Of a DNA stretch of 64,000 nucleotides, positions 27,237 to 56,900 are shown piece after piece; position 1 is the stretch's first letter; every line of letters starts with the position of its first letter. Location: positions 1 to 64,000 of IMG/VR virus record IMGVR_UViG_3300030330_001898. One strand, 5' to 3'. Position numbers and translations under genes: made by a program. The DNA comes from an uncultured virus (IMG/VR IMGVR_UViG_3300030330_001898) (Duplodnaviria > Heunggongvirae > Uroviricota > Caudoviricetes). The notes under the pieces were generated by a model. The model worked only from the letters and a program-made list of their open reading frames with translations. It did not search any database and had not been told where the DNA came from.

Positions 27237-27514
27237 TATGTTATATCCCTATATTCTGGTCTACCTATTAATCTTTTAATTTCTTTTACATTGCCGTCAG
27301 CATCTTGTAAATCAACTGACTTTACTTCTAATATAGAATCTTTTAATCCATAAAATCTTTGGTCAGCAACTGTATTAAATTGAGTCGCTTCATCTAAAAC
27401 TAAAGTTCTTTGAGAAAACTCATCAGATGCTTGATTCAATAAATGAATTATTTCATTAGTGCCAAGTTCTGGATGATGTTTTTTAACTTGGTCTATCATC
27501 TGTTGCAACTTCAT
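27236..27514 (-). CDS. head-tail adaptor-like protein, N-terminal part
   Basis: MKLQQMIDQV...LNQA...TVADQRFYGL typical of adaptor N-termini. Confidence 0.55.
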   Translation of the reverse strand: MKLQQMIDQVKKHHPELGTNEIIHLLNQASDEFSQRTLVLDEATQFNTVADQRFYGLKDSILEVKSVDLQDADGNVKEIKRLIGRPEYRDIT

Positions 27515-28337
27515 TTCTTGCCTCCTGTCCCATATATAATGTTAAAAATGCTAATAAATCTTGTGTTACTTTAACATACTGACTTTCATACCATTGATAA
27601 GATTGAGTATCAGCACTTAAATCAACTTGATAATTTTGTAAATAGGTTTGTATTTGCTGCATCATTGTTTGTGCTAACTCTACATCTTCATCTGCTATAA
27701 AATCCATAGACATGTCAAAATATTTTATATAATCTCTTTTATGTGAATCTGTTGCAATATCACCTGCTTCTAAATCTGATGTTAATTCTGCAGCACCCGA
27801 TACATTAGGTTTACGTATTTGATTCATAATATATCTTAATAATTCTCTAGAGGCATATAATACAACACCTCTTTCTAATTCATCTGGAAAATTATCAATA
27901 AATGTATCACCTAAACCAACAGATGTATCTGGAGTTATATGCTTTACCAAAGCACTTTGTCCGCTAGCAGGAGTTGGTATAACATTTAAAGTGTCATTTG
28001 CTATAAAATACTTTGGATCTAACTTGCTAGTATAATAAATACTATTTACATCTGTATAGTCTCCAACATCTTCTGGTAATATTTCAGTTGCTTTTCTATC
28101 ACGTGAACCATCGTTTCTAGTAACACTTACAATCTGTAGTACTGATGCAGTACTCATAGTTGTAGGTGAATTATTTAATGTTGTAGAACTTGTTAAGCGA
28201 TTTGCTATTTCTGGTAAGTTCATTAAACTTTTTGTAATAAACTTAACACCTTCTACTAAATATAGTTCAGCCTCTGATGTATAATTTGGACTATCTATAT
28301 CACCAACTATTGCTTCTATCTGTGTTTTAAAACTCAT
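27483..28337 (-). CDS. head-tail adaptor/ring protein
   Basis: PKYFI...LNVIPTP...FPDELERGVVLYA; located downstream of the capsid gene. Confidence 0.55.
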   Translation of the reverse strand: MSFKTQIEAIVGDIDSPNYTSEAELYLVEGVKFITKSLMNLPEIANRLTSSTTLNNSPTTMSTASVLQIVSVTRNDGSRDRKATEILPEDVGDYTDVNSIYYTSKLDPKYFIANDTLNVIPTPASGQSALVKHITPDTSVGLGDTFIDNFPDELERGVVLYASRELLRYIMNQIRKPNVSGAAELTSDLEAGDIATDSHKRDYIKYFDMSMDFIADEDVELAQTMMQQIQTYLQNYQVDLSADTQSYQWYESQYVKVTQDLLAFLTLYMGQEARNEVATDDRPS

Positions 28338-37213: not shown

Positions 37214-37249
37214 AAGGGCATTTACTTGTTGTAGGTGCCCTTTTCTCTT
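37214..37249 (+). terminator. rho-independent terminator
   Basis: AAGGGCATTTAC-TTGTT-GTAGGTGCCCTT followed by TTCTCTT. Confidence 0.7.
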
Positions 37250-37693: not shown

Positions 37694-37936
37694 ATGATAG
37701 GATATATATCATTAGCAATACTATTTGGTTTCATATCAATATTGGTATGGAAAGATGTGACTTGCACAAATACAAAAACAAGAAGTTACTATCCGATTCT
37801 AAGTGAAATGGATTACCAGCAAGCAATAGAAATAAAGAAACATATAGATAAGTTGGTAGCTGATTTAGAAAAAGGTGGTTGGGATTACACAAAATACAAT
37901 ATGATAAGTAGTATCAGAAGGAGAAATGATGTTTAA
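37694..37936 (+). CDS. hypothetical single-TM protein
   Basis: AAGGA SD; N-terminal hydrophobic helix. Confidence 0.6.
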   Translation: MIGYISLAILFGFISILVWKDVTCTNTKTRSYYPILSEMDYQQAIEIKKHIDKLVADLEKGGWDYTKYNMISSIRRRNDV

Positions 37937-38333
37937 CAATGAAGAGATATACGATAGAGCGGTGAAATCATTTAATGAAGTAATTAATGAAAAGGTAATA
38001 GCCGCTACAGAATCGAAAGAGTGGGCAAAGTTTAAGTTTGCTACACTTACAAAACAAAAACTTAGGGAAGGTGCAATTAAACACGAGGCACAAATCCCTA
38101 TAACTCTTGTAGAATGTATTAAAGTTAACAGAGACAATTTACAAGAAGCAATAGAAGAAGGTATTGATATGCCAATATATGTTGAAGCAGAGTCAGTTTT
38201 ACAGACTCAACTTGATAGCAATACAACATATGAATACCTTAAAATAGCAAAAGAGTTCATGTATAAGGCAGTGTTTTATTTATTGTTAGCCTTATTTCAT
38301 GACTCAAAACCGAAAGGAAATGAAAATGAGTAA
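37926..38333 (+). CDS. hypothetical protein
   Basis: Overlapping-gene arrangement with an SD. Confidence 0.6.
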   Translation: MMFNNEEIYDRAVKSFNEVINEKVIAATESKEWAKFKFATLTKQKLREGAIKHEAQIPITLVECIKVNRDNLQEAIEEGIDMPIYVEAESVLQTQLDSNTTYEYLKIAKEFMYKAVFYLLLALFHDSKPKGNENE

Positions 38334-38634
38334 CTCAACACAGATAGAAGCGATTCTATATAATGTAAATAACACTGGCTTTGTAGAAGCAAGAGATGAA
38401 AGAGCACTTGCGTGCAGAAATGTGCAAGAGTTTGTGGATTATCTTAGAGACGCAAGTCCTAGTTTGTATGAACAAATTAACTTGTCTAATACAAAGATCA
38501 AAGTAAACTGGGAAGACAATGCAGTTTCTGGTGAATCACCATCTGCTAATCTTCAGACTTTACTGACCAGAACTAGTGCTACTGACGGTAGATGTATTAT
38601 TGCATTTAACGAGCACACGGTTAAAGGTGGATAA
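38326..38634 (+). CDS. ubiquitin-like (beta-grasp, MoaD/SAMP/Urm1-like) protein with C-terminal GG
   Basis: Ends VKGG-stop; NVQEFVDYL..ASPSL helix, IKVN strand and LQTLL..DG.CII pattern fit a beta-grasp; likely start ATG 38326 after AAGGA. Confidence 0.75.
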   Translation: MSNSTQIEAILYNVNNTGFVEARDERALACRNVQEFVDYLRDASPSLYEQINLSNTKIKVNWEDNAVSGESPSANLQTLLTRTSATDGRCIIAFNEHTVKGG

Positions 38635-38645
38635 TAAAAACAACA

Positions 38646-38669
38646 GAGGGGCAGTTTCGGCTGTCCCTC
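38646..38669 (+). terminator. UUCG-loop hairpin after the Ubl gene
   Basis: GAGGGGCAG-TTTCGG-CTGTCCCTC; no strong U tract. Confidence 0.55.
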
Positions 38670-38691
38670 ATAACTTTAAGGAGAGAATAAT

Positions 38692-38919
38692 ATGGCTGAG
38701 AAAGTGAAAACATGCGGTATTAATAAAGAAAAGGGTTATCTATATTACTTGAACATACATGGTGATGTGTATCGTAAAACTATAGATAAGAGAAGTGAGA
38801 AAGTTCTTGATACAAATATATTGCGTGAAAGTGGATACTTATACTTTATCGATAGAGAAGGTGATGTATCAAGAGCACCAATGGTAAGAAAGGAGTATAT
38901 AAATGTGGAAAGAAGTTGA
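38692..38919 (+). CDS. small CC1-like (crenarchaeal chromatin protein 1-like) nucleic-acid-binding protein
   Basis: Internal duplication KEKGYLYYLNIHGDV / RESGYLYFIDREGDV; family recalled from memory. Confidence 0.55.
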   Translation: MAEKVKTCGINKEKGYLYYLNIHGDVYRKTIDKRSEKVLDTNILRESGYLYFIDREGDVSRAPMVRKEYINVERS

Positions 38920-40897
38920 ATGGGATGACTTAGAAATGGACATATCTGATGTTTCATCTGAAATGATTATAGGTCCAAAGAATATAGTGATGAGAAAGAT
39001 TAACGACTTCAACAGATACTTTACTCAAAACACTTATGTTAGTGGCAATAGAACAATGGTAGAACCATTACCACCACTAGCATTTACAAGAACATATAGG
39101 TGGAAACCTGGATATATGAAAATTGTTAATGAAGTAATATCTGAAAGATTGTTGCAACTACATAAAGGTGGTAGCTTAGAAACTAAATTCAATAGAATGG
39201 ATAGAGCTCAACATCAACTCAGACAACTAAGAGAAAGACTCTTAGATATTGATACTCTGATGAGAGAGTTGAGAGTGAGAAAAGCAACAACTGATCAAGA
39301 TGTAGAAGCAGCAACAGAAAATATGCAAAATGTTATGGATATATTTCAGAACAAAACAAAAGAAGCAGAGTCTTACTTTTCTTTGAGAGATGATATGGAA
39401 ATATCAATGATATTTAAATATTGGGAACCAAATACTTCTCATTTAGATGAGGATGAACAGTTGTCAATGTCTCAGATAAACTTACTAAAGTTTCTTACTG
39501 GACATTTATCTATGGCTATACATATCAAAGATCCTGAAATGGAAATATTGCATAGTAGTTTTGGACAGCAAAGAAAAGTAAAATCGTATGGTAAGATTAA
39601 ACTTATGGACGATATATTTGTTCTTTATGAAATACCATTTTATGCAATGTTTCAAGCACTATACACTTCTAAATTTCATGATTTGAAAGCAAGCGATATC
39701 AGCAACAATTATCAATATAGAAATATGATTGACGGATATCTCAGAGGACAAAATCTGAATAGATCTTACGAAAGTCATGGTATGACAAGATATTCTGGTA
39801 GACCTACTGAACTATCAGGTTGGTGTGGAAGTGATAGTCCTGGACAAAGAACATTCCCATACATTAGTAAAGGTCATAGTTATGAAACAGACACTAATAG
39901 TTTTTCAGCTTTCGGTGTTAATCATAATGCAGTAAGCACTTGTTTTGGTAATATGGATCAACATATTCGAGATGCATTTGTAAGACTAGATTTCTTATCT
40001 ATTATGGATATATTATCACATTGGATTAGATATGATATACACGATACAAGACCTCTAAACAACTTACAAGAAAGTTTCTACACTTTACCAAAAAATCGTA
40101 TTAGATCTGATTTTATAAAAGATTATACGGATTTTGATATAGGTAGAATGCATTCAAAATTGTTTAATGATTTTGATTGTGATAGACATTTCAGAAATTA
40201 TTGGTCTCAACCAACTCACGAATATATTGGTCAAGTAGATCAGTATGGTACGAGAAAATATCTAGAGTCTGGTTATGCTATGTTGGGTAAAGGTTGGTTG
40301 CAAGAACCTGAATCACCAGTAGTTTCAGTTGGTAATTCACAAGAACAATATCGTGCAATATTTGGTTGGGACTTTAGTCGTCCTAACTGGATACCTAACA
40401 GTCTTATCATAATGGAACTTCAAAGTAGACTTGCTACTTATGGATTTCTAAATGATGATACATATGTTGAGGATACCAAGAACATCAAAGATGTTCATAT
40501 AACTGCTTATCAAGAATACACATATGCTTTGGTAGATGCAGTTAAAAGAATATTAGATGAAGATCAATGTATTACTATTGGTCATGGATTATACAAACAT
40601 ATGGAAAATCTGGTAGAGTTTGTTGACAATATTGAATGGACTGAATTAGAGGAAATGAATCAGAAAGTGAAAAAGGAACTAGAAAAAGAAATCAATATGG
40701 TGCAAAGTAGAATAAACAGTAGAATAGACAATGATCTTCCATTTCAAGAGGATGAAGATCCATATGAATTAGATTATGATGATGATGAATATGAATACGA
40801 GTTAAACAGAGTAGATTTTCCTGGATTATTACCAGGTGAATCACCAATACAATATGAACGTAGAATATTAAACGAAAGAGAGGATAGTAATGAGTAA
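38903..40897 (+). CDS. large protein with putative prokaryotic E2 (UBC-like) domain
   Basis: FPYIS...STC347FGN...IRDAF..LDFLSIMDILSHW resembles the E2 HP...C-LG...helix core; lies between Ubl and JAB genes. Confidence 0.55.
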   Translation: MWKEVEWDDLEMDISDVSSEMIIGPKNIVMRKINDFNRYFTQNTYVSGNRTMVEPLPPLAFTRTYRWKPGYMKIVNEVISERLLQLHKGGSLETKFNRMDRAQHQLRQLRERLLDIDTLMRELRVRKATTDQDVEAATENMQNVMDIFQNKTKEAESYFSLRDDMEISMIFKYWEPNTSHLDEDEQLSMSQINLLKFLTGHLSMAIHIKDPEMEILHSSFGQQRKVKSYGKIKLMDDIFVLYEIPFYAMFQALYTSKFHDLKASDISNNYQYRNMIDGYLRGQNLNRSYESHGMTRYSGRPTELSGWCGSDSPGQRTFPYISKGHSYETDTNSFSAFGVNHNAVSTCFGNMDQHIRDAFVRLDFLSIMDILSHWIRYDIHDTRPLNNLQESFYTLPKNRIRSDFIKDYTDFDIGRMHSKLFNDFDCDRHFRNYWSQPTHEYIGQVDQYGTRKYLESGYAMLGKGWLQEPESPVVSVGNSQEQYRAIFGWDFSRPNWIPNSLIIMELQSRLATYGFLNDDTYVEDTKNIKDVHITAYQEYTYALVDAVKRILDEDQCITIGHGLYKHMENLVEFVDNIEWTELEEMNQKVKKELEKEINMVQSRINSRIDNDLPFQEDEDPYELDYDDDEYEYELNRVDFPGLLPGESPIQYERRILNEREDSNE

Positions 40898-41813
40898 GTT
40901 CATAATGAATCAGAAAGACTGGGATACTATACAAAATTATTCCAGATATGCTTATGATGAGCACAAGTCAGAAATTGGTGGATATATGCTTGTTAAAGAA
41001 ATTGATAACAAGTTTGTATTTACTAATCCAGTAATACTTGAACAAGAAATTACTGCTAGTAATACAGAGATAACAGCAGACGCTGTTAGTGATTATACAG
41101 TTAAAATGGAAGTGCAACACGGTAAAGAGGAATATTGGTTGTGCTGGTGGCATAGTCATCACACTATGGATGTTTTCTGGTCCCCAACTGACCATACAGC
41201 TATTAATCAACATAAAACAATAACAGGTAAATATACATTTAATCTTGTTGTTAATCTTAAAGAAGAACATATTCTTAGAGTATGTGATTGGAGAACTGGT
41301 ACACAAACTGATCTTCAAATGGAAATAGGTGATAAAACTGAAATACCAGATTATATTATCAATGAAGTTGAAGAGAAATGTTCAAAACCTAAACCTGTAA
41401 CATACAAATATCAGACTACGAAAACAAATAATGCATTTAGTAGTATGTATAATGGTGGATATGTTAATCAGATGAATATATGGGCTTCGGATAAAACAGA
41501 TGAAGAAAGAGTAGATGTTGAAGCAAAGTTAGATACTATCTTACAAGAATATCTTAATGATTCTGATTATCCAAAATACAGAAAAGCTGTAGGAAATCTA
41601 AATAGAAAACTTGGTAGAGATCAAAGTGAGCTTAGAGTTCTTATAGTAGATAAAGAACAACTTGTGCAATGTGTTCATTTGTTAATGGCAGATGAATATA
41701 TTTATGCAAAAGGTGGTGATAAACCAGATATACAAACATCAATAGATTTTGAAAGGTCTTTTGATATGACTGGTAATGTAAATATAATTAATGCGAAAGG
41801 AGAAGTGAAATGA
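40890..41813 (+). CDS. JAB/JAMM (MPN+) metalloprotease
   Basis: E28 plus H88-S-H90-x7-S98-x2-D101, a complete JAMM motif. Confidence 0.9.
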   Translation: MSKFIMNQKDWDTIQNYSRYAYDEHKSEIGGYMLVKEIDNKFVFTNPVILEQEITASNTEITADAVSDYTVKMEVQHGKEEYWLCWWHSHHTMDVFWSPTDHTAINQHKTITGKYTFNLVVNLKEEHILRVCDWRTGTQTDLQMEIGDKTEIPDYIINEVEEKCSKPKPVTYKYQTTKTNNAFSSMYNGGYVNQMNIWASDKTDEERVDVEAKLDTILQEYLNDSDYPKYRKAVGNLNRKLGRDQSELRVLIVDKEQLVQCVHLLMADEYIYAKGGDKPDIQTSIDFERSFDMTGNVNIINAKGEVK

Positions 41814-42448
41814 ATGAGAGATATTCTGGGTTAGTTAATAACTTTGATGAATATGCTTATCATTTCTTGGGTTGCGGTGCTATTGGTAGTGCCGCAGCTA
41901 CAACTATGGTAAGAATGGGTGCTAATATGGTCCATTTGTATGATATGGATCGTGTTGAAAGCCCTAATATTGGTGTATCAATATATGATACTAATGATAT
42001 TAATAAACCAAAAGTAGAAGCATTGAAAGATAAACTCTTAGCAATCAATCCAAATGCCTATATTAATACTCATAATGGTGAATTTGAAAACATATTACAA
42101 GAACCTCGTAATGTAGTTATTCTTGGATTTGATTCTATGAGTTCAAGATTAGATGCAGTAAAGAATATTCTAAACTTAGAAAAACCTGAGATACTTATTG
42201 ACGGTAGAATGGGTGCAGAATATTATCAGCAATATACATTTGAACAACCAACTTTGAAAGAGTATATGAAAACTTGGTATACAGATGATATAGCAGATGA
42301 TGTTCCATGTAATCAAAAAGCAACTAGTTATTGTAGTAATATGACTGGTAGTTTGATATGCAACAATGTAAAAAAGATACTGAAAGATGAACCTTATATG
42401 AAAAATTTCTCTTTCAACTTTGTTACTTGTTCATTAGATTTACATTAG
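41810..42448 (+). CDS. ThiF/E1-like adenylating enzyme
   Basis: GCGAIGS, YDMDRVESPN, KPKVEAL, FDS, IDGRMG motifs; candidate catalytic C167. Confidence 0.92.
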   Translation: MNERYSGLVNNFDEYAYHFLGCGAIGSAAATTMVRMGANMVHLYDMDRVESPNIGVSIYDTNDINKPKVEALKDKLLAINPNAYINTHNGEFENILQEPRNVVILGFDSMSSRLDAVKNILNLEKPEILIDGRMGAEYYQQYTFEQPTLKEYMKTWYTDDIADDVPCNQKATSYCSNMTGSLICNNVKKILKDEPYMKNFSFNFVTCSLDLH

Positions 42449-42538: not shown

Positions 42539-42949
42539 ATGAAAGCATATATAAGTGAACTTATATACACTCAAGAAACTCAATCAGAACATAATAGTTG
42601 GGAACATAGAATGCCTTACAAAGAAATGTTCCAAAGCATGGATATAGACTTTACAATACAACTTGAAAACTTAATTACATTTCATCAATGTTGGGAAAAA
42701 TATCACAACAATACAATATGGTGTCAATTAGGTTTAATAAGAGATGATTCAGATAAAGTTTTAATGGCTTCACAAGGTTATCCAGCAAACGAAATAACTG
42801 ATCAAAAACCATATGGTCCAAGTATGCGTATAGACATAGGAACTTTGCATGAAGTTGCTATATGTGAGAAACATTCAATACCATATGAATTAATATTAAA
42901 AATGAAAATCAAATATATACATGTTAAAATGAGAAGGAGAGTGTTATGA
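42539..42949 (+). CDS. hypothetical protein
   Basis: AAGGA SD upstream. Confidence 0.6.
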   Translation: MKAYISELIYTQETQSEHNSWEHRMPYKEMFQSMDIDFTIQLENLITFHQCWEKYHNNTIWCQLGLIRDDSDKVLMASQGYPANEITDQKPYGPSMRIDIGTLHEVAICEKHSIPYELILKMKIKYIHVKMRRRVL

Positions 42950-43495: not shown

Positions 43496-44086
43496 TTGAA
43501 TATGAAGTTCAAAGGTAAAGAATATACTGAAGTCAAAGATCGTATCGATGCATTCTTATCTGAATATCCTGAAGCTACAATAGAAACAACATTAGTTTCA
43601 GTAAACAATATAACAGATACACCAACAGGTGAAAGATGTAATGAATACTTAATATCTGCTACAGTATACCCTTCAAAAGAAAACAATCCAGATCAATATT
43701 ACACTGGTCATGCAGCTGAACGTGACAATACTGGATTTGTTAACAAAACATCAGCACTAGAAAATTGTGAAACATCAGCAGTCGGTAGAGCATTAGCCTT
43801 TGCTGGATATGGTGGTGGATACGCAATAGCTTCGAAAGAAGAAGTGGATAATGCAAAAGCTGCACAAAAGAAATCTCATGTAACAATAAAAATGTTAGAA
43901 GAGTTAGATGCTGGTTTCAAGAAAGCTACACCTTACTTAGACGAAGCAATGATAAAAAGATACAATGAACAGCGTACTGCTGGACATTTCGATACTAAAC
44001 TTAGAGTAAATGCTACAATGCAATACTTTAATCAAATGATTAAGGAGGGCAAGGATGTCGGAAAAGACAAAAAAGATGCCAAGTGA
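43496..44086 (+). CDS. single-strand annealing protein (Rad52/Sak-like)
   Basis: YTEVKDRI...TGHAAE...NKTSALENCETSAVGRAL motif; upstream of an SSB-like gene. Confidence 0.7.
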   Translation: MNMKFKGKEYTEVKDRIDAFLSEYPEATIETTLVSVNNITDTPTGERCNEYLISATVYPSKENNPDQYYTGHAAERDNTGFVNKTSALENCETSAVGRALAFAGYGGGYAIASKEEVDNAKAAQKKSHVTIKMLEELDAGFKKATPYLDEAMIKRYNEQRTAGHFDTKLRVNATMQYFNQMIKEGKDVGKDKKDAK

Positions 44087-44851: not shown

Positions 44852-45105
44852 TGACAGCTGAAGAAATAGTTATTGCGTGGATTAAAAGTATCAAAGGTAA
44901 AAGAAGTGATATCTTTTATAGTTATGATTTGGAAGGTGCACTACCATTGTATGGTAGGTTAGCACATCAAAAATTACACACTGCAAGTACTTATGCTAGA
45001 GCATTTAGAAAGATACGTGAAAGTAATACTTTAAGAAAGCATGGCATAAAACTAGAAGAAGTTGAACATAAAAGTGGGAAAGTAAAAGGATGGAAAATAG
45101 GATAA
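44851..45105 (+). CDS. hypothetical protein
   Basis: TAATG-coupled ORF. Confidence 0.55.
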   Translation: MTAEEIVIAWIKSIKGKRSDIFYSYDLEGALPLYGRLAHQKLHTASTYARAFRKIRESNTLRKHGIKLEEVEHKSGKVKGWKIG

Positions 45106-46880
45106 TAGAGGTAGTTGAAGGTGGTGTACAGAAAAGAAATAAAATTTGTACATACACTGAATACTTAACAAAACAAAAAGCAAATGCTTTTAAAAAAGAA
45201 ATGTATAGATCATATTATTTGTTTGACAATACATTTCGTGATCATTTACTTAAACATAAAACAGTTAAAGGATATGATGGACTTGTTTATCCAGATAAGT
45301 TTATTATAGACTTAGACAAAGGAGATATTGATGGAGAAAATATGCAAAGCTATTTACAACATACTTGTAATGAGTTGTTTGATTTTGGCATTGACAGTAG
45401 CCATATCAATATCTGGTTTAGTGGTAGCGGTTATCATATTGAGTTACTTAACGTATTTGGCTTTCAACCAAATAAAAAGTTGCATGATAAAGTGAAAGCT
45501 ACGTTTACTAAACATTTTAGTTTTGGTGATAATATTTACGACAAGACAAGAATCATTAGATCAAACTGGTCGTTAAATAAAAAGACTAAGCTGTATAAAG
45601 TTTGGATACCATTAGAAGATATATGGAACTTATCTTATGATGATGTATGTTTATATGCTTCATCTAAAGAAGAGTATACTAAATATATTAAGTCTAAACC
45701 AAACTTTTATGCAACAATGAATGATGAAAGTGCTTTTGTAGAACCTTATCTACAAACATCAATAATATCAAGTATCAATAAAAATATTGAATTAACACCT
45801 ATGAGAAGTGGTGAAACTAATTCTGTTGTTACTTGTGTGCAACATATATTTAATGAAGGACCAACTCAAGGTTCACGTAATAAAAATATGATGCGTATGG
45901 TAAGTTCTTGGAAAAGAGCTGGAATACCATTTATTGTTGCATTAAACGGCATAGTAAAATGGTCTCAAAACGAGTTAGATATATCTGAAATAGAACGCAC
46001 TGTTACAAATGTATATGACAATCAATATATATACGGTTGTGATGATGCAATACTTATGGAGTATTGTGATCCAAAGTGTATTCATTTCAAACGTAAAGAT
46101 TATGTATTAGATATTAGAGATGTTGCTTCGTTAGAAGATACATTTAAACAATACATAACTAACGATCTAACAGCAAGGAGTATTAATATACAAGACATAT
46201 TTGATGGTGCTCCTGATTACGTATTCAAACCAGGTGAACTAGTAATATTTAGTGGTGATACTGGTATGGGTAAAACTGCATTCGTTCAAAATATAGTGAC
46301 AAAAGCCAAAAAAGATACTTTATTCTTATCTTTAGAGATGAATGAAATATTGATATGGAGAAGATTCGGACAAATAGCTGAAGAGAAAACAAGTGAATGG
46401 GTTATTAATCAATATAAAAATAATCCAGAGTTTTCTTTGAAAGATAAGTTAGATCATCTTAATATTATGGTGATTGCTCCTGAGATCGAAGCAATTAAAA
46501 AGGTTGTAGCACAATATGAACCTAATGTATTAGTAGTTGATACTACTGATGAAATGCAAGTAGATAGGTTTGATGGTGATATACAAAAACAAAATTTTAT
46601 TATAGATGCACTCAAACAGATTGCACAACGTAATAACACTTTAATTTTTGCTATACATCATTTAAACAAAGCTAGTGCTTCTCAAGGTACTATAGGATTA
46701 CATTCCTTGAAAGGTTCATCTAATGTGGTACAAAAAGCAGATAAAGTAATTGTGATTAAAGGTAATCGTAATGAAGTATATCGTACTGTTATGTCTGAGA
46801 AATCAAGAGATGATGGTAGGTTAGAATTTGTTACTGAGTTTAATCCAAGCACTATGACATTTAAACGTATAGAAATATAA
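45090..46880 (+). CDS. primase-polymerase (AEP) fused to SF4/DnaB-like helicase
   Basis: IDLD, FSGSGYH and R..R AEP motifs; GSRN PriCT-like segment; Walker A GDTGMGKT, SLEM, VVD, HHLNK, KGSS. Confidence 0.85.
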   Translation: MENRIIEVVEGGVQKRNKICTYTEYLTKQKANAFKKEMYRSYYLFDNTFRDHLLKHKTVKGYDGLVYPDKFIIDLDKGDIDGENMQSYLQHTCNELFDFGIDSSHINIWFSGSGYHIELLNVFGFQPNKKLHDKVKATFTKHFSFGDNIYDKTRIIRSNWSLNKKTKLYKVWIPLEDIWNLSYDDVCLYASSKEEYTKYIKSKPNFYATMNDESAFVEPYLQTSIISSINKNIELTPMRSGETNSVVTCVQHIFNEGPTQGSRNKNMMRMVSSWKRAGIPFIVALNGIVKWSQNELDISEIERTVTNVYDNQYIYGCDDAILMEYCDPKCIHFKRKDYVLDIRDVASLEDTFKQYITNDLTARSINIQDIFDGAPDYVFKPGELVIFSGDTGMGKTAFVQNIVTKAKKDTLFLSLEMNEILIWRRFGQIAEEKTSEWVINQYKNNPEFSLKDKLDHLNIMVIAPEIEAIKKVVAQYEPNVLVVDTTDEMQVDRFDGDIQKQNFIIDALKQIAQRNNTLIFAIHHLNKASASQGTIGLHSLKGSSNVVQKADKVIVIKGNRNEVYRTVMSEKSRDDGRLEFVTEFNPSTMTFKRIEI

Positions 46881-47968: not shown

Positions 47969-50900
47969 TTAATCTTCTGGGATTGTATCAAGTTCTTCTT
48001 CTATAGCAGCTTGTTGTTCCATTTGATTACGTCTAATTGAATGTAATCTTCTTAATGGCAATCCAGTCATAAAATCTACTGCCATAGCAGGACTATCATA
48101 CGTCTTTTTTAAGTCTCTGAATAGTCTACCAAAAGGAAAGTATGTAGCAACTTGATATTTATAAAAGTTTTCCATATCACCATTTAATATAGCAGTGATA
48201 GGAGACAATACAAATCTAGCAATAGGTGGTGTTACGATCTGTAATGGTGCTAAATATTGAGAAGGATATGAACTAAAGAATGCACGTTCTCTTTCTTTTT
48301 CATCACCAAACAATAATGCAGATGTATCTTGTAACCAGTTCATAGGTGGTGATAATGCATATTCAAAAATACTAGCAATAAATATATTACCAAGTGCTAA
48401 TGCCATTAAATCTAGAGTTAGTTGTCTTTCAAATTTCTTTTGAGACAATGTATCTCTTTTCCAACCTTCAAGCTTAGCATCTTTTGTGATCTGTATACGT
48501 CTACCAATACTATTCCATGCATATGGTTGGAATCTGGTTAATACACGACCTAAAGATGTATTAGCAAAGTTAGGCCTGAATGTAGCCTGATACATAAACT
48601 GAGATGCTTTAACACCTTTCATAGCAAAGTCTGTAATAACTGGACTATTAAATGGTATTCCATCAAAAATTTTCTCACCTAAAATAGTTCTCATATTAAT
48701 ATAGTTAGCTAAAAATGCGGTACCACGTAGTTTACGTTCCGACCATTTCATTGGTAAAGCACCAGCTTCAACAACAGGTATTTCTACTTTTAAATATTCT
48801 GCTGTTTCTCTTAAAGTTCTTTTAGATTCAATGTCGTGCAGCTCTTTAGAAGTTATTCTGCCTTCTTTATAAGATTTATTCATACGTGATATAAATTCAA
48901 TCCAAAACTTTTTTACACCCTGTCTACCAAAGTTTTTATCAAGAGATACAAGATCTAAGAACATCTGATCATATACCCCAATAGTTTCCATCCATTCAAA
49001 AATTCTTTTCATACTATTAATCTGAACCTTTTGTACTCTACCATCTGGTCCTACTACAGAAAACTCTGCTTTACCTCCACCAAATAAGTTCTGTATCATC
49101 CACTCAGAATCATTTGCTTTCCTAAATGCTGACCAACCTGTATCAGATATCGTATTAACAGTACCACCATATAAGTTAGTAATAGCTGTTTTAGGGTGTG
49201 ATAATAATGATAATAGCTCAAACTTACCTTCTAGGTCACTCAACTGTCTTACACGTTGCATAATAGCAAATTGTCTATCTTTAGAATTAGTAGGTAAAGG
49301 ACCAAATAATTTACCACCAAAGGCTCTGTCTAGCTTATTAAAGAATCTAACTGCTACTTCATCACTTGTTAGATGATACAATGATCCATACTTACCAGTA
49401 GAGTTTACTCTTTCTACTAACTTATTAGCTCTTGAAAGTCTTAATGCTTTAATTTCTGCTTTAGTCTTTTCAACATTTCTATTATTTCTTTTAAATATCA
49501 ACATCTGTTCATGGGGCATAACATCAATAGCTGCATCAAAATCTTTAATCAAATCTTTTTTATATCTACCAGTACCTTCTTTAGGTCCAGTCAAACCATC
49601 TTTTATATATTGTCTTAAGAACTCTTGGTCTTTTTTTTGTATACCATGCAAGTTCAATGCACGATATGTACTTAAACCCATCATATTTGTAAAAGAATCT
49701 CTCATATAGTTTGACCAATCAGCTGCCCATTCTTGACCTTTATGAACATTATCAAAGTTTCTTAACAATATTTCAGATCTTAATCCAGCAAGATTTGTAA
49801 ACCACATCTTAAACAATCCACTTGTATAAAAACGTACAGCATCAATATCTTTTTGATAAAAAGGCATAAACGTTTCACCTCTATTTTTAGTCATGCTAGC
49901 TGCATAATCACCAATAAATCCATCAAGATTTGGTCTTTCCATTAAATCAGTTATTTGTCTTTCAGCAGCTGCTTGACCATTAGTTATAGAAACACCTATC
50001 ATTCTTTCAAAACCTGCTTTTAAATCTCTTTTATATGTAAGAGCTGCCTCCATATGACTTACACCATCTATGTCCATCTTTGCTTGTAGGTAAGTTGGTA
50101 ATAACTTTTTATCTTGTAATGCTCTGTTAAACTTAACTTCAACATTATCTTTAATCCACTCTGCAAGTTTTTCTTGATTAGCCTGATATCTACCATGTCC
50201 TAACCTAGGAAAATAACCTTCTACAATATCACCAACATAATATTTAGTATACTCACCTTTAGTTTTTGCTAACTCTTTTAATACTGTCTGTTTTACAATG
50301 TAAGCTTGTGAACCTTTTTGAGATACTTTACCCTTAGGTTTACTTACATTAATGCCTTTTGGTTCTAATAAAAATTGTATTCTATCTCTCAACTCCATAT
50401 GGAATTTGATAAATCTATAATCATTAACACTCATAAGATATTTACCAATATATTCTCTGTCAGTTACATTTCTGTTCATCATATCTTTATATAACAATGA
50501 CACCCTATTTTCATTTATAATGCCTGTTTCTTGCAAGAAAGTTTGTTCAAGGTTACGTGAGTCTAGGTCTTTTGTTTGTGAGCCTTTAAACACCCCTTCT
50601 ACTACAAACGCACCATCTTTATTAGTGCCATATGAAAGTCCTTTAACTTTTTGTAGATCTACTAATGTTTTAGATAACTGTTTTACATTTGTTTTTATGT
50701 ATGTATTCTTAATACTTTGTAATAATTTAGATGTATCAGATGCAATTCTATCTACAAATTGTTGAGGTTTTATAGGTGTTAATGTACCATCTATATTACC
50801 TTGTGGTATATTAAATACAACTCCACTATCTTCTAGTTTTTTAATTGCTGATTGAGTATCTAAATAAGATTCTACAATGTAAGTTCTTTCCCCCTCACCA

Positions 50901-53900
50901 CCAACTTGCGTAGGAAACCTTGGTTTACCATCAGGTCCTGGATTGTATTCTATTTTATTTACAGCAGCTTGAAACAACAAGTCTCTATGTTCTGCCATTA
51001 ATTTATCAGTGGTATTAAAATAATAATATACACCATCAACTTTATCTTGTTGTAGTTTATAAATAATCTTTTGATATGTATCAAATTTATCTATAGCTAC
51101 TCTACCTGCTTCAAGAGTAGTAACAGGTATAGATATTCTTTTTTTAGATATTTTTCCATTTTTATCTAATGTAGGTCTAGCATTAGTCTCTATCTCAAAT
51201 CTATCTAAATTAAATAAATATTTAGCAGCCTGTCCATATCCTAACGTCTGATCAATAGCACTAGGCTTTCTAACAGCTTCTCTTTGTTTTTGAAATGCTG
51301 TCTTTTTACTTAACAACATTTCTAAACTTTTATTAAACATAACAAGATCTTCTGTGGTCATAGTCTCTAATCTTCTTTGAACACCAGTTTGATTGTATGT
51401 TAATTCCATAAACATTTCTTCTAATCTCATTATAGTGTCTGGATTTTGAAACAATATTTCTCTAAGTTTTTTAATTTCTTTACTAGCTTTGTCTGTTAAG
51501 ATAGCATTCTTATCAGATTCTACTCTAAATAAATATTCAAACTGAGGTATAAGTTCTCCTATATATCCATCTAAATTTTCTTGTTTAGTTTTTAAGCTAG
51601 GAGCATCTTCTATTATTGTATCAACTATCTTATCTTTATTACCAAAGAAATTAAATTTTACTCTATCTTCTACTATTTCAAAATTATTTTGATATACAGT
51701 ATTTTCTGATAAAGATCTATCAAATGCTTCAATACTAAATGTTGTTTTAAACTGCTCTTCAAACTTAATTGCATCATTATCTATAAGTTTTTGAGATAGT
51801 TTTTCTCCAACTCTTTGACCATTAGACTCTAACATTTGACGCATATCAGAAAAGAAACTTTGTCTACCTCTATCACTTATAGCTATATAGCTAGATATAT
51901 TATCTACGTTAGGTCTATATTTTGTTAATGCTAAATTTTTAAAATACAAAGCTCTTGAATAGTCTTCATTATTTAATCTATCACCATCTTTTATAAACTT
52001 ACTAATATTAGAATTTTCTTTTTCTATATCTAACAATGCAAGTTTTTGTATATCAGTAGTAGGTCCTTTCAATGGACTTGATAATAACCATGTTTCTATA
52101 ATAGGTTCTATATCTTTATAGATAGTAGGATACTTATCTTTAAAGTTTAATTTTATTCTTCTAATTAATGTATTTACATCATTACCAGATAATTCTAAAT
52201 GTTTTTTGCCAGGAAAACTTAAGTTATTTCCTCTATCAAATAAAGATTTTATCATAAATGTTTGATCTATAATATCTTTTACAATCATTTCAGCAGTTTC
52301 AGATCCATATTCATTAGGTTTTTTCTGTTGTATATCTCTAATAAATTGTTCAGACATTTTTAAACTTCTAAATATACCTTGGTATTCAAAAACTTTTTGA
52401 TGCAATAATCCTGGTTCATTAATAATTAAATTTAATGTATCCTTAGCTTCTAGTTGAGAGTTATAATTATCAGTTAAACCAAACCTTTGCAACAATGGAT
52501 GATCAACTACAAGTTCTCTATATCTTAATATTAATGCTTTTGCTACATCAGTAGCAGCAAAGTCTTTAAATTCTTTAGCATAAAATTTAAAAGGATTAAT
52601 AACAAAATTAGGATAATCAACTAAAGCTTTTGCTATATGGTAATAGAATCTATTTTGTGAGCCAAAAGTTTTTAAATAATTTTCTCCAATAGTAGTAGAT
52701 ATTGTTGGATCTGTTACATTTTTATTTCTATATCCGACAGAATGTATATCTTTAAATGACTTTAATTCTGTAATTCTATTAAAAGCATACTCGTATTCAT
52801 TGCTATATCTTTCAAACATATCAAATTCTTTGCCTTGAACTTCAGGCTTACCTGTAATTTCAAAATGTTTAGACCAAAAAGTATCTAATATTTTATCGTA
52901 GGTTGCTACTTTTGTAAAGTTTGCAGAGTCTGCCATTAGATTAATACCTCTATATGTATCTAATTGTAACTCTCTCACAGATGTTTTTAACTTTAAACCA
53001 ATAGGAAACATTGTACCTTTAATAAATGTAGTCAGTTTCATTTCTGGTATTCCCATAGCGGTATCTTGTTGAATAATATCAGCTACCATTTGCATACGAT
53101 TAAATCCAGATACTACATACTCAATATTTTTTTTACCAATACGTGCATTTCTAGCTACATCAATTCTTAGATTACTATTCATTAAATCTTCTAATGCTCT
53201 AGTACCATTTGCTCCACCTTCAGATACTTTAATATCTGGATATTGTTCAACTAAACTTTGCCATTCTTTACCTTGAGGAGTTTCAAATGATAATGCATCT
53301 TCATTGTTTTTACCTGCTAATTCATTCTCATATTTCTTAAATACTTTCTTAAAAGATTCAGGCATATTCTGATACATAAATACACTGTCAGCATCTTTAT
53401 CTGCACCACCTAAGTAATAATCTGTTTTAGATGTAGTGACAACATTCATACCTCTTCTACCTGTAAATCCAACTACCTCTACAACACGTACACCACCATT
53501 ACCACTATTAGGATTACGCATAATTAAAAATGTAAGAGCATCTCTTAATTGATTTATTTCTGTACCAAATTGTTGTATATCATTTTTTATAACGTTTAAT
53601 CTATCAATAGCTTTTCCTAAAGTTATCTGATCATTTCCAACCATTATAGGCATATCTCTAAAAGTTTCTCCTAATCTTATTTGATTATCACGTAATCCAG
53701 TAGCAGTTTCTGGATCAGCAGGTCCTAACTTACCTTCTACGGCATTATTTACTCTAGGTTTTACTACTCTTTTATGACGATATTCTGTTAAACTTCTATT
53801 AATAAAAGATAAATATGGAGGATAAATTACAGATCCAATATCATATCCAGTTTTAAATAATGCATTTGGCACATCATATTTAACAAGTTGTTGTAAAGTA

Positions 53901-56900
53901 ACATCTATTAAATCAGTAGCTTCTTGTATATTTTGATGATAATCTTCACGACCTCTTTCTAATATTTTTCTTAATAATTTTAAACCAAAAGGAGTTTTTA
54001 TTTGATCAGACTCTAATACTCTATTAATTGCACCTAATGATATTGTATCTATATTATACTCTAAACTTAAATCTTGTTTTGCAAAAGCTTGTTCAAAGGC
54101 TTTGGTTTTTTCAGGATTACCTACAACAGAAGATTCAATCATTCTATCATAATCAGCTACAAAGTTATCATAGTCTTTACCTATTTGCTCTTTGTTGAGT
54201 TTATCAAACATTTGTTTAGCAATTAATAAACCATTATAAAGTTTGTTAGGGTTTTCATAAACACCATAATTCAAATATAATTCTTCTGGTTTTATACCAA
54301 ATGATTCTATGTTATCTTTTATAGAGTATTCTTTAGTATTATTATTCCATTCTAGTTTATGTTTTTTAATACCTAACATTGTTTTTGTTGCAGATTCAGC
54401 AGTAATAATATCTATATTATTAGCTTTCATAAACTTATCCATTGCAGTAGTAGCTCTAAATGTACCAGTTTTAAATAATATAGTACCAGTTCCTTCTCTA
54501 GGAGCTTTAAATCCTACAAGTTTTAAAAATCCACTATCTGGATCTCTATAATTAGCATCAGAAATAGCATCAAATATTTCTTTTCTTATATATACAACAG
54601 CATCTATAGCACTCTTAGAAGGCTCTCCATCTACTTTAAATGTAGAAGGTATGTCTTCTATCTGTACAACTTTCCACTCTCCATTATCATCTAGTTTACC
54701 TTTGTAATCTACAGACTCCAATTTTACTTCTTGACCTTGAGCTAAACTATTGTATTTATTAAATTTTTGTACAGTTTCAAATAAAGGATTCTGTCTAAAC
54801 TTTTTTAATCCATCATTTAATTTGTCATAAGTTATTGGTTCATTAGCTTTTATATAGCCAGCATCTAACAAAGAATAATAAATATTACTTGCATAATCTT
54901 CTGCTTGCACATCTGTTAATTTATCCTGTGTAAATAATTTATTATCTCTTAATAATTGTTTTTGTAAAGCAGTGGTAATTTCTGTGTCTGTAAATGGACG
55001 TTTGTGTAATATAATCTCTCCAGTATCTTTAGCACCACCATATATATAATATCCTTGTTCTCTAGCAGAAGCATTTAAATCATTTAACATAGCGTCTTTA
55101 AGAAAATATTCAAACTTTTGATATAATACTTTTTTATTTTTACCTGAACCTATTGTAATATCATTGTCAGAAAAATCTAAAATTTTCTTTCTACCAAATA
55201 TAGGTACTTCTACTAAACCTCCGTCCTTTATTAATAGACCAAACTTATGAAGTTTTTCTTGTATATAAGCTTGTCTAACAATAATACGTACTCTTCTGCC
55301 ATTTCCTATATGTTCATTGTATTTACTTTTTTGTCTTGGAGCACCAACTGGTTTATCTCCTATATCTCTCATAGGTTGTCTTGTAACAACTGGTTGACCA
55401 CTACTAAAATCTATCTCATAATCTTCTCTTATTTGTACATTTTTTTTAAGTTTTAAATATGAACCTAATAACGATTCATTAACTTCTTTGAAAAAAACTT
55501 TTCCATCTTTTATTTGCTCAGGATATTTTTCTTTTAAAGCCTCTTTAAATTTAGGTAAATTGTACTCAGTCTCTACAGCAAGTCTACCTATATCAACTAA
55601 CAACTGGTCTTGACTTGTAGATATATTCATAGACCTAAGTTTTTCTACTAAAGTTTTTATCTGTGGATTACTAATAGCTGGTTCATTTAAATCCTTAGAA
55701 GTTAAATTTACTAGGTCAGCTAAATCCATTCCTAAGTTTTCTTTTATTTCTCTCTTAAATGCTTCTAATCCACTTTTATCTTTATCACTTATTACTGCTA
55801 TATTCTCAACACTTTCTAATGCTTCTGCTATTTTAGTTTGTTCTACTTCAGCTTTAATTTGCTCCCACTGTTCACGAGTAGGTCTTGTAATACCTTTTTC
55901 ATCTAATATAGCTTTTACTTCAGGTATAACAACTTTAGTAATAGAAACATCTCTGTCAAATACCTGTTGTTGTATTAATGGTATTCTACTCTTTACATAG
56001 TCTCTATCAAATTTAGGTAATGCTAAAAACTCTGGATCAGCTTCAAGTTCTCTTGTTAAAGTTTGTTCTGTTTTTTCTAATGAACGAAAACGTTCTGAGT
56101 TTTTATTTAGATACTTAATTCTTTGTATAAATCCTGCATCTCTAGCAGTAGCACCAAAGAAAGCACCTAATAAATATTCATATACCTGTTCTGGTACAGG
56201 TAAATTTTGTGCAGTAGCCATACCACCTTGTAATCCAGAACCAATAGCACCTTTAATAGCCATATTGATTCCTTCTAAAGTTCTATCTTCTGCTGCTAAC
56301 TCATCAGCTTTTCTACGAATAATATTTTCACCAAGTTTTCTTGTCTTAGGATTAGCATATATACGTGCTACATTTACATAATTACCAATAGTTCCAAACA
56401 TACCACCAGCTATAGCACCATGTATAGCTGCATCTGCTGCACCTTTAGCACCTTCTGTCCAACTACTTACACCCATAGCTATACCTAAGTGTGCAGCCTG
56501 CTCTCCTATATCTCTAAACCTTGGACTTTTTAATATACCCTTAGCAAGAAAGCCGTCCTTTAATACACCTGCATCTCCAAAAGATGCCTTAGCCTGCTCT
56601 ATAACTTTATCAGCTACCTTCATTGGTATTGATTGTAAAGCAAAGGTATCTGTACCTATTTCTTTTCTAAATGCAGGAGGAGCCGCTTCACCAGCAGCAC
56701 GTAAGCCTTTTGTTACACCACCAGCTGCTTTTAAACTAGCACGTTTAGCTACAGCTACTGGTATATACTGGCCCATAGATAGTGCACTTGCAATAACATC
56801 AGGAGCAAAACCAACAAGGTGTCCTACTTTATTAGCTATAGATTCTATAGATGTATCAGGTTCATCTGACCAACCAAGAGTTGTAAAACCTTCAACAAGT

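Follow-up and report, generated by a model that had tools for sequence, protein, structure and literature searches.

A phage-borne ubiquitin-like gene module built around an unnamed family of cysteine proteins

Here we report a conserved gene module in a 64,000-nucleotide stretch of DNA from an uncultured virus of the Caudoviricetes (positions 1 to 64,000 of IMG/VR record IMGVR_UViG_3300030330_001898; hereafter referred to as the window). Four genes encode a ubiquitin-like (Ubl) protein ending in Gly-Gly, a 664-amino-acid protein with an invariant cysteine, a JAB/JAMM metallopeptidase and a minimal ThiF-type E1 adenylation domain. The module is carried by a phage, among replication genes, and was found at 50 non-redundant viral loci. 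It is a genuine, conserved feature, a new phage-borne variant of the prokaryotic Ubl systems that is built around an unnamed family of cysteine proteins. Tagging of proteins by the virus itself during infection is probable, and we consider the chances evenly poised that the four genes constitute a self-contained, phage-encoded Ubl conjugation module.

An earlier note on this DNA, made from the sequence alone, had described five co-oriented genes, and the listing of open reading frames (ORFs) places all five on the + strand. The last three junctions (75-amino-acid ORF/large gene, large gene/JAB and JAB/E1) overlap by 17, 8 and 4 nucleotides (nt), respectively. The genes are as follows.

38299/38326-38634, + strand: Ubl protein, predicted beta-grasp, with a VKGG-stop end; 111 amino acids from the ATG at 38299 or 102 amino acids from the ATG at 38326
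38692-38919, + strand: 75-amino-acid ORF with an internal two-fold repeat, between the Ubl gene and the large gene
38903-40897, + strand: large protein of 664 amino acids, candidate E2/E3-like transferase; uncharacterised phage family with an invariant Cys347
40890-41813, + strand: JAMM/MPN+ (JAB) metallopeptidase of 307 amino acids, with a Prok-JAB match and the motif residues
41810-42448, + strand: minimal ThiF/MoeB-type E1 adenylation domain of 212 amino acids, with a Pfam ThiF match and an invariant Cys167

To survey the module, viral contigs were gathered around three sub-families of the large protein and duplicates were removed, leaving 50 loci. The large protein is present in all 50, the Ubl protein in 49, a JAB gene directly downstream in 43 and an E1 gene after it in 40. 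All ten loci lacking an E1 gene stop at a contig edge, within or just past the preceding gene, and the sole locus lacking a Ubl gene is a contig that begins inside the large gene. The four genes co-occur wherever the contig extends far enough and constitute a conserved module. The Ubl gene usually lies just upstream of the large gene and is found 0.5-1 kb further upstream in two loci; in one relative (locus L032, 7742-7957) it lies between the large gene and the JAB gene. The next commonest neighbour is a primase-helicase (37 of the 50 loci), in agreement with the position beside replication genes that had been read from the window. A 135-amino-acid gene upstream of the Ubl gene occurs in 15 of the 50 loci and a 136-amino-acid gene in 13, and the 75-amino-acid ORF, among 17 loci, was found only in the closest relatives (L001 and L003) and in the window's own locus (L006). 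The conserved unit therefore comprises four genes, not the five of the earlier note, which had included the 75-amino-acid product as a 'CC1-like' component. The 75-amino-acid ORF is a lineage-specific insert outside the conserved module and seems to have entered the operon recently. Its repeat follows the pattern GYLY[YF][LI]..[HE]GDV.R, and its matches are at noise level only (for example, the PHROG endolysin family phrog_7854, E 0.016).

For the Ubl protein, the 75-amino-acid ORF product and the 664-amino-acid protein, searches of Pfam, PADLOC, PHROGs and NCBIfam gave nothing better than noise. An AlphaFold model of the Ubl protein, built from an 11-row alignment, has a pLDDT of 76.5 and shows a strand-strand-helix-strand-strand arrangement followed by a disordered C-terminal tail. 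Matches to the model and its fold include MoaD, CysO, SAMP1, ubiquitin-like domains, bacterial multi-ubiquitin and BubA, and all 50 of the 50 matches listed are beta-grasp proteins. The top Foldseek rows are ubiquitin, NEDD8 and UBX domains, at E values of only ~0.01, and the structurally nearest proteins are MoaD and CysO. As judged from this model, the protein has the beta-grasp fold, and the earlier description of the 102-amino-acid product as a beta-grasp protein ending in Gly-Gly agrees with both the model and the fold matches.

The product of the window ends in VKGG-stop, and the Gly-Gly pair is kept in 49 homologues, in which between 0 and 31 residues, variable in sequence, come after a conserved [KRTS]GG. 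The tail past Gly-Gly is absent in 10 proteins and is 1 residue long in 9, 2 in 6, 3 in 14, 4 in 2, 8 in 3, 9 in 3, 10 in one and 31 in one; the last is the Ubl protein of a relative at 5520-5831 of locus L070. Because 39 of the 49 homologues carry 1-31 residues past Gly-Gly, C-terminal trimming would be needed, a task that would fall to the co-encoded JAMM peptidase. Across the wider family, the C-termini resemble those of ThiS and MoaD (...dGD.VAAV..NK[TS]GG).

The 307-amino-acid protein carries the metal-binding and catalytic motif of JAMM peptidases (E...HxH x7 S xx D). The residues E28, H88, H90, S98 and D101, which the earlier note had listed as an intact motif, are retained in 41-43 of 43 unique relatives. 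Its match to Pfam Prok-JAB (E 3.3e-5, 24.2 bits) lies just below the cut-off of 25, and it also matches the PADLOC JAB models (E 1.5e-4). Residues ~130-307 form a C-terminal extension of ~180 amino acids that is kept in the relatives (for example, C162 and a GNLNRKLG block) and for which no family match was found.

The 212-amino-acid E1 is a single domain that matches Pfam ThiF over residues 20-195 (E 1.4e-19, 70.7 bits against a cut-off of 28.1) and belongs to the Rossmann-type, GxGxxG-bearing adenylation domains of the ThiF/MoeB superfamily. The glycines of the nucleotide-binding loop (G21-x-G23-x-x-G26) and the residues D45, K68 and D108 vary little or not at all, and R4 is kept as well; we take the roles of these residues to be those assigned in work on MoeB. 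All 42 of the 42 unique relatives have Cys167, including gp76 of ΦcrAss001 and gp50 of FpV4. The earlier assignment of a ThiF/E1 protein with a nucleotide-binding loop and a free Cys167 is thus borne out. In PADLOC, the E1 matches the E1 halves of the CBASS Cap2 models (best E 1.3e-13), and in NCBIfam its nearest model is ThiF (E 4.3e-18), with the 6A-MBL cap2_3 model at 8.1e-12. The E1 nevertheless scores below the equivalog cut-offs for ThiF (PRK08644, 65.7 versus 159 bits) and MoeB (32-36 versus 266-377 bits). Matches in the PDB are ThiF-type proteins, UBA5, PaaA, MccB and MoeB, the best being 9egc.

The 664-amino-acid protein has 15 homologues by word index, and a HMMER scan with its family retrieved 211 representatives of clusters at 50% identity (E<=0.001), of which 103 have E values of <=1e-10 and 23 of <=1e-30. 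The ten family members identified by exact sequence are unnamed or 'hypothetical' marine-metagenome proteins on contigs of <=69.5 kb, which fits a phage-only distribution of the family among the members examined. Cys347 is matched by Cys in all 115 relatives with a residue at that column (138 span the column and 23 are gapped there). Around it, G349 is kept in 112 of 115, P319 in 106 of 112 and P384 in 115 of 115 relatives, and W374, T382, L385 and N386 are conserved as well. An alignment of 32 sequences, with 30 of the 31 relatives sharing no more than 16-37% identity with the protein of the window, has G24, P25, N37, T62, P319, C347, G349, W374 and P384 as its invariant residues. The family signature reads HP[FY]I...CxG...W...TxPLN, the window itself having FPYI and C-x-G-N. 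Such invariance across 16-37% identity suggests an active-site pattern and therefore argues that the protein is not a passive target.

The earlier note had seen an E2-like core in this protein (FPYI...C347FGN). The cysteine has proved constant, but the E2 or UBC assignment is unsupported beyond the motif resemblance and sub-threshold leads. A model of the whole protein has a pLDDT of 65.7 overall and 70-89 across most of residues 1-420. The predicted elements comprise a helix at residues 189-199, four strands at 201-245, a long loop containing F318-P-Y-I, and C347 at the start of a helix at 349-360. This order of helix, strands, HPx motif and cysteine agrees with the UBC topology. In the Atlas, the three best named clusters for residues 185-400 are all Prok-E2_D and mostly viral, with scores of 0.79-0.81; scores below 0.9 are, by the tool's own warning, leads only. 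A 'Type II CBASS E2 protein domain-containing protein' appears at rank 35 in BFVD (E 1.2), where the significant matches are six unnamed members of the 664-amino-acid family only (E 1e-15 to 2e-12).

Several results weigh against an E2-like identity. The weak UBC-like leads, which cover residues ~128-400, are all three below the noise marks of the tools themselves. The gap between HPx and Cys is 18-28 residues in the family, compared with the ~8-10 residues of canonical E2 enzymes. Pfam E2 families are absent from the protein and from sets of 87 and 32 of its relatives, Prok-E2_D (PF14460) gave nothing in 11 viral records (this one and ten others) even at E<=10, and UQ_con has zero matches in the genome. 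The PADLOC E2 models likewise leave the protein unmatched. Its sequence has zero matches among PDB sequences at E<=10, and a profile search of the PDB with the family gave one match only, at E 1.4, to the coiled-coil part. The UBC fold that the earlier note expected a fold search to reveal was not recovered: Foldseek against the PDB with the whole model returned nothing at E<=0.001, the top rows (the ΦcrAss001 vertex and the portals of Sf6 and P22) having meaningless TM scores of 0.07-0.08. The VIA-wide comparison gave helical-bundle matches to residues 22-132 only. Weighing these results together, we slightly favour a UBC-like nature for the C347 domain. A predicted complex of residues 1-430 with the Ubl protein (ipSAE 0.01 and 0.00) is evidence neither way. 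A portal or connector identity was considered and rejected: a single sub-threshold Phage_connector match was found in one of 87 relatives, and the phage has a portal of its own.

Parallel cassettes occur in cultured phages. A tblastn search with the E1 matched 76 phage records, all at <60% identity; the 40 matches listed are 27.6-29.5% identical over 85-93% of the query. By organism name, the 76 records comprise 29 Bacteroides, 29 Flavobacterium, 13 'uncultured' and 5 others. Two of the cassettes are laid out as follows.

L018 3283-7693: ΦcrAss001 gp79-gp76 cassette; Ubl-like, middle protein, JAB, ThiF
L019 3595-7606: FpV4 gp53-gp50 cassette; Ubl-like, middle protein, JAB, ThiF

In ΦcrAss001, FpV4, cr106_1 and bajarodcaudo virus 1, the E1 gene is preceded by a gene for a 401-423-amino-acid protein and, before that, one for an unnamed 420-444-amino-acid protein. 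The 401-423-amino-acid protein carries a JAB motif in ΦcrAss001 and FpV4, the two that were scanned (Prok-JAB E 4.9e-4 and 7.6e-3). The first gene encodes a Ubl-like N-terminus reaching KSGA (ΦcrAss001 and bajarodcaudo virus) or KSGG (FpV4), beyond which the protein continues for another 130-200 residues; in the upstream protein of cr106_1, no such KSGA/KSGG pattern is present. The order is as in the module of the window, and the cassettes lie between primase and UDG. The JAB and E1 proteins of the ΦcrAss001/FpV4 type are homologous to those of the window (for the E1, 28-29% identity over 85-93% of the length, with Cys167 kept), whereas their Ubl-like domain is fused to the 130-200-residue tail and their JAB and E1 proteins have extra domains. 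The middle proteins of the ΦcrAss001 and FpV4 cassettes keep a YMHSH...CxG pattern of their own. Homology between the 664-amino-acid protein and ΦcrAss001 gp78 or FpV4 gp52 was considered and is not supported: narrow and broad hidden Markov model searches gave nothing and hhalign gave a probability of ~1% at E 0.056; the gp78 alignment used for hhalign comprised 7 sequences only, and its 120 listed homologues are all >=79% identical. In GenBank, the genes of these cassettes are named 'thiamine biosynthesis protein' or 'metalloprotease domain containing protein', or are hypothetical.

From the Ubl fold, the JAB and E1 motifs, the invariant cysteines, the strict linkage of the four genes and their location in a phage, we infer the following chemical steps, role of the large protein and nature of its targets. 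The Ubl protein would be made as a precursor, from which the JAMM peptidase trims the 1-31 residues past Gly-Gly in most relatives. In this phage, the JAB protein may act mainly as a de-conjugating or editing enzyme, because the Ubl gene already stops at Gly-Gly. The minimal ThiF-type E1 would adenylate the C-terminal glycine of the Ubl protein with ATP, and the acyl group would then pass to Cys167 of the E1, to Cys347 of the large protein, or to both in turn. The 664-amino-acid protein would serve as a combined E2/E3-like transferase whose other domains may choose host or phage proteins as targets, with formation of an isopeptide bond. More tentatively, and with rather less than an even chance in our estimation, many phages of marine Bacteroidota, and in parallel form Crassvirales and Flavobacterium phages, may run their own Ubl tagging from the replication module; the transferase would then be a cysteine enzyme of a new class, with no sequence relationship to known E2 enzymes, and would tag host or phage proteins for takeover or for the blunting of host defences.

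A different chemistry would be that of a sulfur carrier, in which the JAB protein trims the Ubl protein, the E1 makes a thiocarboxylate by way of a host persulfide, and the cysteine of the 664-amino-acid protein inserts sulfur into a small molecule, tRNA or phage DNA. We judge this unlikely, but keep it because host enzymes could serve as both suppliers and acceptors of sulfur and because the Ubl protein is structurally nearest to MoaD and CysO. The ThiS/MoaD-like C-termini of the wider Ubl family point the same way, as does the constant position of the module among replication genes, also in ΦcrAss001 and FpV4. ThiF models are, moreover, the best named matches of the E1, including those in NCBIfam, which speaks against conjugation. 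Sulfur operons that combine ThiS/MoaD, JAB and E1 have been published (Iyer et al. 2006, Table 1 rows 4a-4e). Those operons, however, have rhodanese-fused E1 proteins, cysteine synthase or other sulfur genes. Here the profiles for rhodanese (PF00581), MoaE (PF02391), ThiG (PF05690), PP-loop ATPase (PF01171) and PALP (PF00291) had zero matches anywhere in the 69.5-kb genome at E<=1, while 12-14 of 14 control genomes gave matches in these searches. The co-conserved neighbours at the 50 loci are replication genes, with no sulfur-transfer enzymes among them. The remark in the earlier note that sulfur-transfer, thiamine and molybdopterin enzymes are missing therefore holds for the whole genome with these five profiles. 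The 664-amino-acid protein, for its part, matches no known sulfurtransferase family. The tails of the Ubl proteins reach 31 residues, and that of FpV4 extends ~200 residues past KSGG; long C-terminal extensions of this kind are more typical of conjugated Ubl proteins.

Conjugation might also proceed by the E1 alone, as in the E2-independent systems of archaeal SAMP/UbaA and Thermus TtuB/TtuC, with the 664-amino-acid protein serving as the principal target, or as an effector that would be switched when the Ubl protein is attached and when the JAB protein removes it. No E2 family is detectable in the module, the E1 has an invariant cysteine (Cys167) of its own, and the same slot in ΦcrAss001, FpV4, cr106_1 and bajarodcaudo virus holds an unrelated 420-444-amino-acid protein. 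The slot could therefore be a variable one for effectors or targets, which would be expected for cargo more than for a core enzyme. We nonetheless consider E1-only conjugation improbable, to the same degree as sulfur transfer: the family of the large protein has retained a signature like that of an enzyme, in which Cys, Gly and Pro are absolutely conserved at 16-37% identity, the middle proteins of the crAss and FpV4 cassettes also keep their YMHSH...CxG at a comparable place, and the weak fold leads are toward UBC-like domains. That the four genes stand together by chance, or are the decaying remnant of a host-defence locus acquired by one phage, is refuted by the conservation data and has a negligible probability. 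The same order recurs in the 50 viral loci although the identity of the large protein falls to 16-37%, the catalytic motifs are all intact, the genes overlap by 4-17 nt, and family members lie on contigs of <=69.5 kb.

Among known systems, the closest analogue is Bil, which, as described in PMC11601596 (section 5), likewise combines four components in one operon: a Ubl protein whose C-terminus is a glycine, a gene for a transferase that bears a cysteine, a peptidase of the JAB/JAMM type and an E1. By this analogy, the module would work most like Bil. The two differ in that BilB is a recognisable E2, whereas the 664-amino-acid protein is not, and in that the E1 of the window is a single 212-amino-acid ThiF domain and lacks the E1 architecture by which Bil is defined. 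Furthermore, Bil is a bacterial anti-phage locus, whereas the present module is a conserved part of phage genomes, one of them complete, and is found on 50 viral contigs. Type II CBASS shares with it an E1 resembling the E1 half of Cap2 and, more weakly, a JAB protein matched by the PADLOC models. The PADLOC E1-E2 models, however, align by their E1 half only (for example, profile positions 364-463 of 602), the cyclase models in PADLOC are unmatched by all seven module proteins scanned, and the tag in type II CBASS is the C-terminus of the cyclase, in contrast to the separate Ubl protein here. The module is thus a member of neither Bil nor type II CBASS, to which the earlier note had likened it, as its E1 is a single adenylation domain, with neither an E1-E2 fusion nor a tandem E1.

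Bub systems, as described in PMC11601596, rely on fused proteins (Ubl-E2, JAB-E1 or E2-E1), on a serine protease of the DUF6527 type and on oxyester chemistry, and their BubCD E1 fusion lacks a catalytic cysteine. By contrast, the genes of the window are separate, DUF6527 is absent from the module in Pfam scans, and both enzymes keep their cysteines. The ThiS-ThiF and MoaD-MoeB sulfur carriers and the sulfur operons of ThiS/MoaD, JAB and E1 share with the module a beta-grasp protein ending in Gly-Gly, a single-domain E1 with a cysteine past the nucleotide-binding fold and a JAB protein that trims the carrier; in the window, unlike in those operons, a rhodanese fusion and a sulfur acceptor enzyme are absent and the setting is one of phage replication. 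Membership of the PRTRC systems was rejected, as scores are far below the cut-offs and ThiF models score higher. For PRTRC_ThiF (TIGR03736), the E1 of the window reaches 15.3 bits and its relatives up to 37.5 (ΦcrAss001 falling within this range) against a cut-off of 144.75. PRTRC_A (TIGR03735) matches only the JAB proteins of relatives (12.6-15.2 bits, E 0.012-0.075, against a cut-off of 101.8), and the PRTRC B, C, E and F models are unmatched by the Ubl and large proteins of the module. In phages, the lambda/T1 protein TAPI, a beta-grasp protein with a C-terminal glycine, adjoins the JAB-NlpC protein TAPK (Iyer et al. 2006). That pair belongs to a tail-assembly cluster and is without an E1, whereas the module includes an E1 and is encoded on the strand of replication genes, opposite the structural genes. 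A literature search, mostly outside subscription journals, returned neither an account of this module nor one of a Ubl-JAB-E1 cassette in crAss-like phages.

The window comprises the first 64 kb of a virus record of 69,528 bases with a CheckV completeness of 100% and has a G+C content of 27-35%. A PHROG scan of its large ORFs identified a large terminase (E 2.8e-80), a portal (1.3e-62) and a major head protein (5.6e-24), together with a tail fibre and a primase/DnaB-like helicase, and the location of the locus in a phage, as proposed earlier, is thereby confirmed. Public runs containing the locus are marine metagenomes. The module lies inside the sole long + strand block of the window (~36.8-47.9 kb), at which the sign of the GC skew flips; the block also carries the primase-helicase, and the structural genes are on the opposite strand. 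Judged by strand and neighbourhood, the module genes may be early genes, as the earlier note had called them. The remaining genes listed for the locus and its surroundings are as follows.

37926-38333, + strand: 135-amino-acid helical protein that overlaps the start of the Ubl gene; accessory gene of a phage subgroup only
42539-42949, + strand: 136-amino-acid protein 3' of the E1 gene; subgroup-specific, and upstream of the module in more distant relatives
45090-46880, in the + strand block: primase/DnaB-like helicase (PHROGs/Pfam)

In Pfam, PADLOC, PHROGs and NCBIfam, the 135-amino-acid flanking protein is unmatched and the 136-amino-acid one has no match that exceeds noise. A terminator-like hairpin is located at 37214-37242, and the next on the + strand does not occur before 47858. 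A scan for sigma-70 promoters found 69, no better than chance (shuffle mean 73.7). Three metatranscriptomic runs of one study contain short contigs over the Ubl gene and parts of the large and JAB genes with 0-1 mismatch; we do not count them as evidence of expression, because DNA carry-over may account for them. Among 50,697 phage records, the locus (blastn) and the 664-amino-acid protein (tblastn) have zero matches.

Other features of the window were noted. Two giant ORFs on the - strand, at 3170-11491 (2773 amino acids) and 47969-57139 (3056 amino acids), went unmatched in Pfam and PHROGs at the thresholds applied. In the ORFs of >=120 amino acids scanned in the window, which excludes the last 5.5 kb of the genome, PHROGs and Pfam recognised the primase/DnaB-like helicase but no DNA polymerase. 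The ORF at 27483-28337 (- strand) weakly matches an SU10 adaptor (PF24175, E 1.3e-5, 26.2 bits against a cut-off of 27), which may hint at the virion type. At 43763-43797, inside the ORF at 43496-44086, contigs of one DNA-library and two RNA-library runs break at the same two places, with identical foreign flanks and raised word depth; this may be a short segment common to co-sampled phages.

Studies of prokaryotic Ubl conjugation have so far dealt with sulfur chemistry or with anti-phage weapons of the host, namely Bil and type II CBASS. In the present case, phage genomes carry the complete set of genes as a fixed component, found in at least 50 distinct marine viral contigs, and the 664-amino-acid cysteine family included in the set, with 211 representatives at 50% identity, is named by no profile library. 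The same architecture is present in the cultured phage ΦcrAss001 of Bacteroides and in the FpV4 group of Flavobacterium, and the question is therefore directly testable. If the four genes do conjugate the Ubl protein, phages would themselves use ubiquitin-type tagging, a new family of transferases would be recognised and a conserved gene block of crAss-like phages would have to be re-annotated. If, further, the tagging is run by the phages with a new class of transferase, the module would mirror, on the viral side, the Bil and CBASS systems of bacteria.

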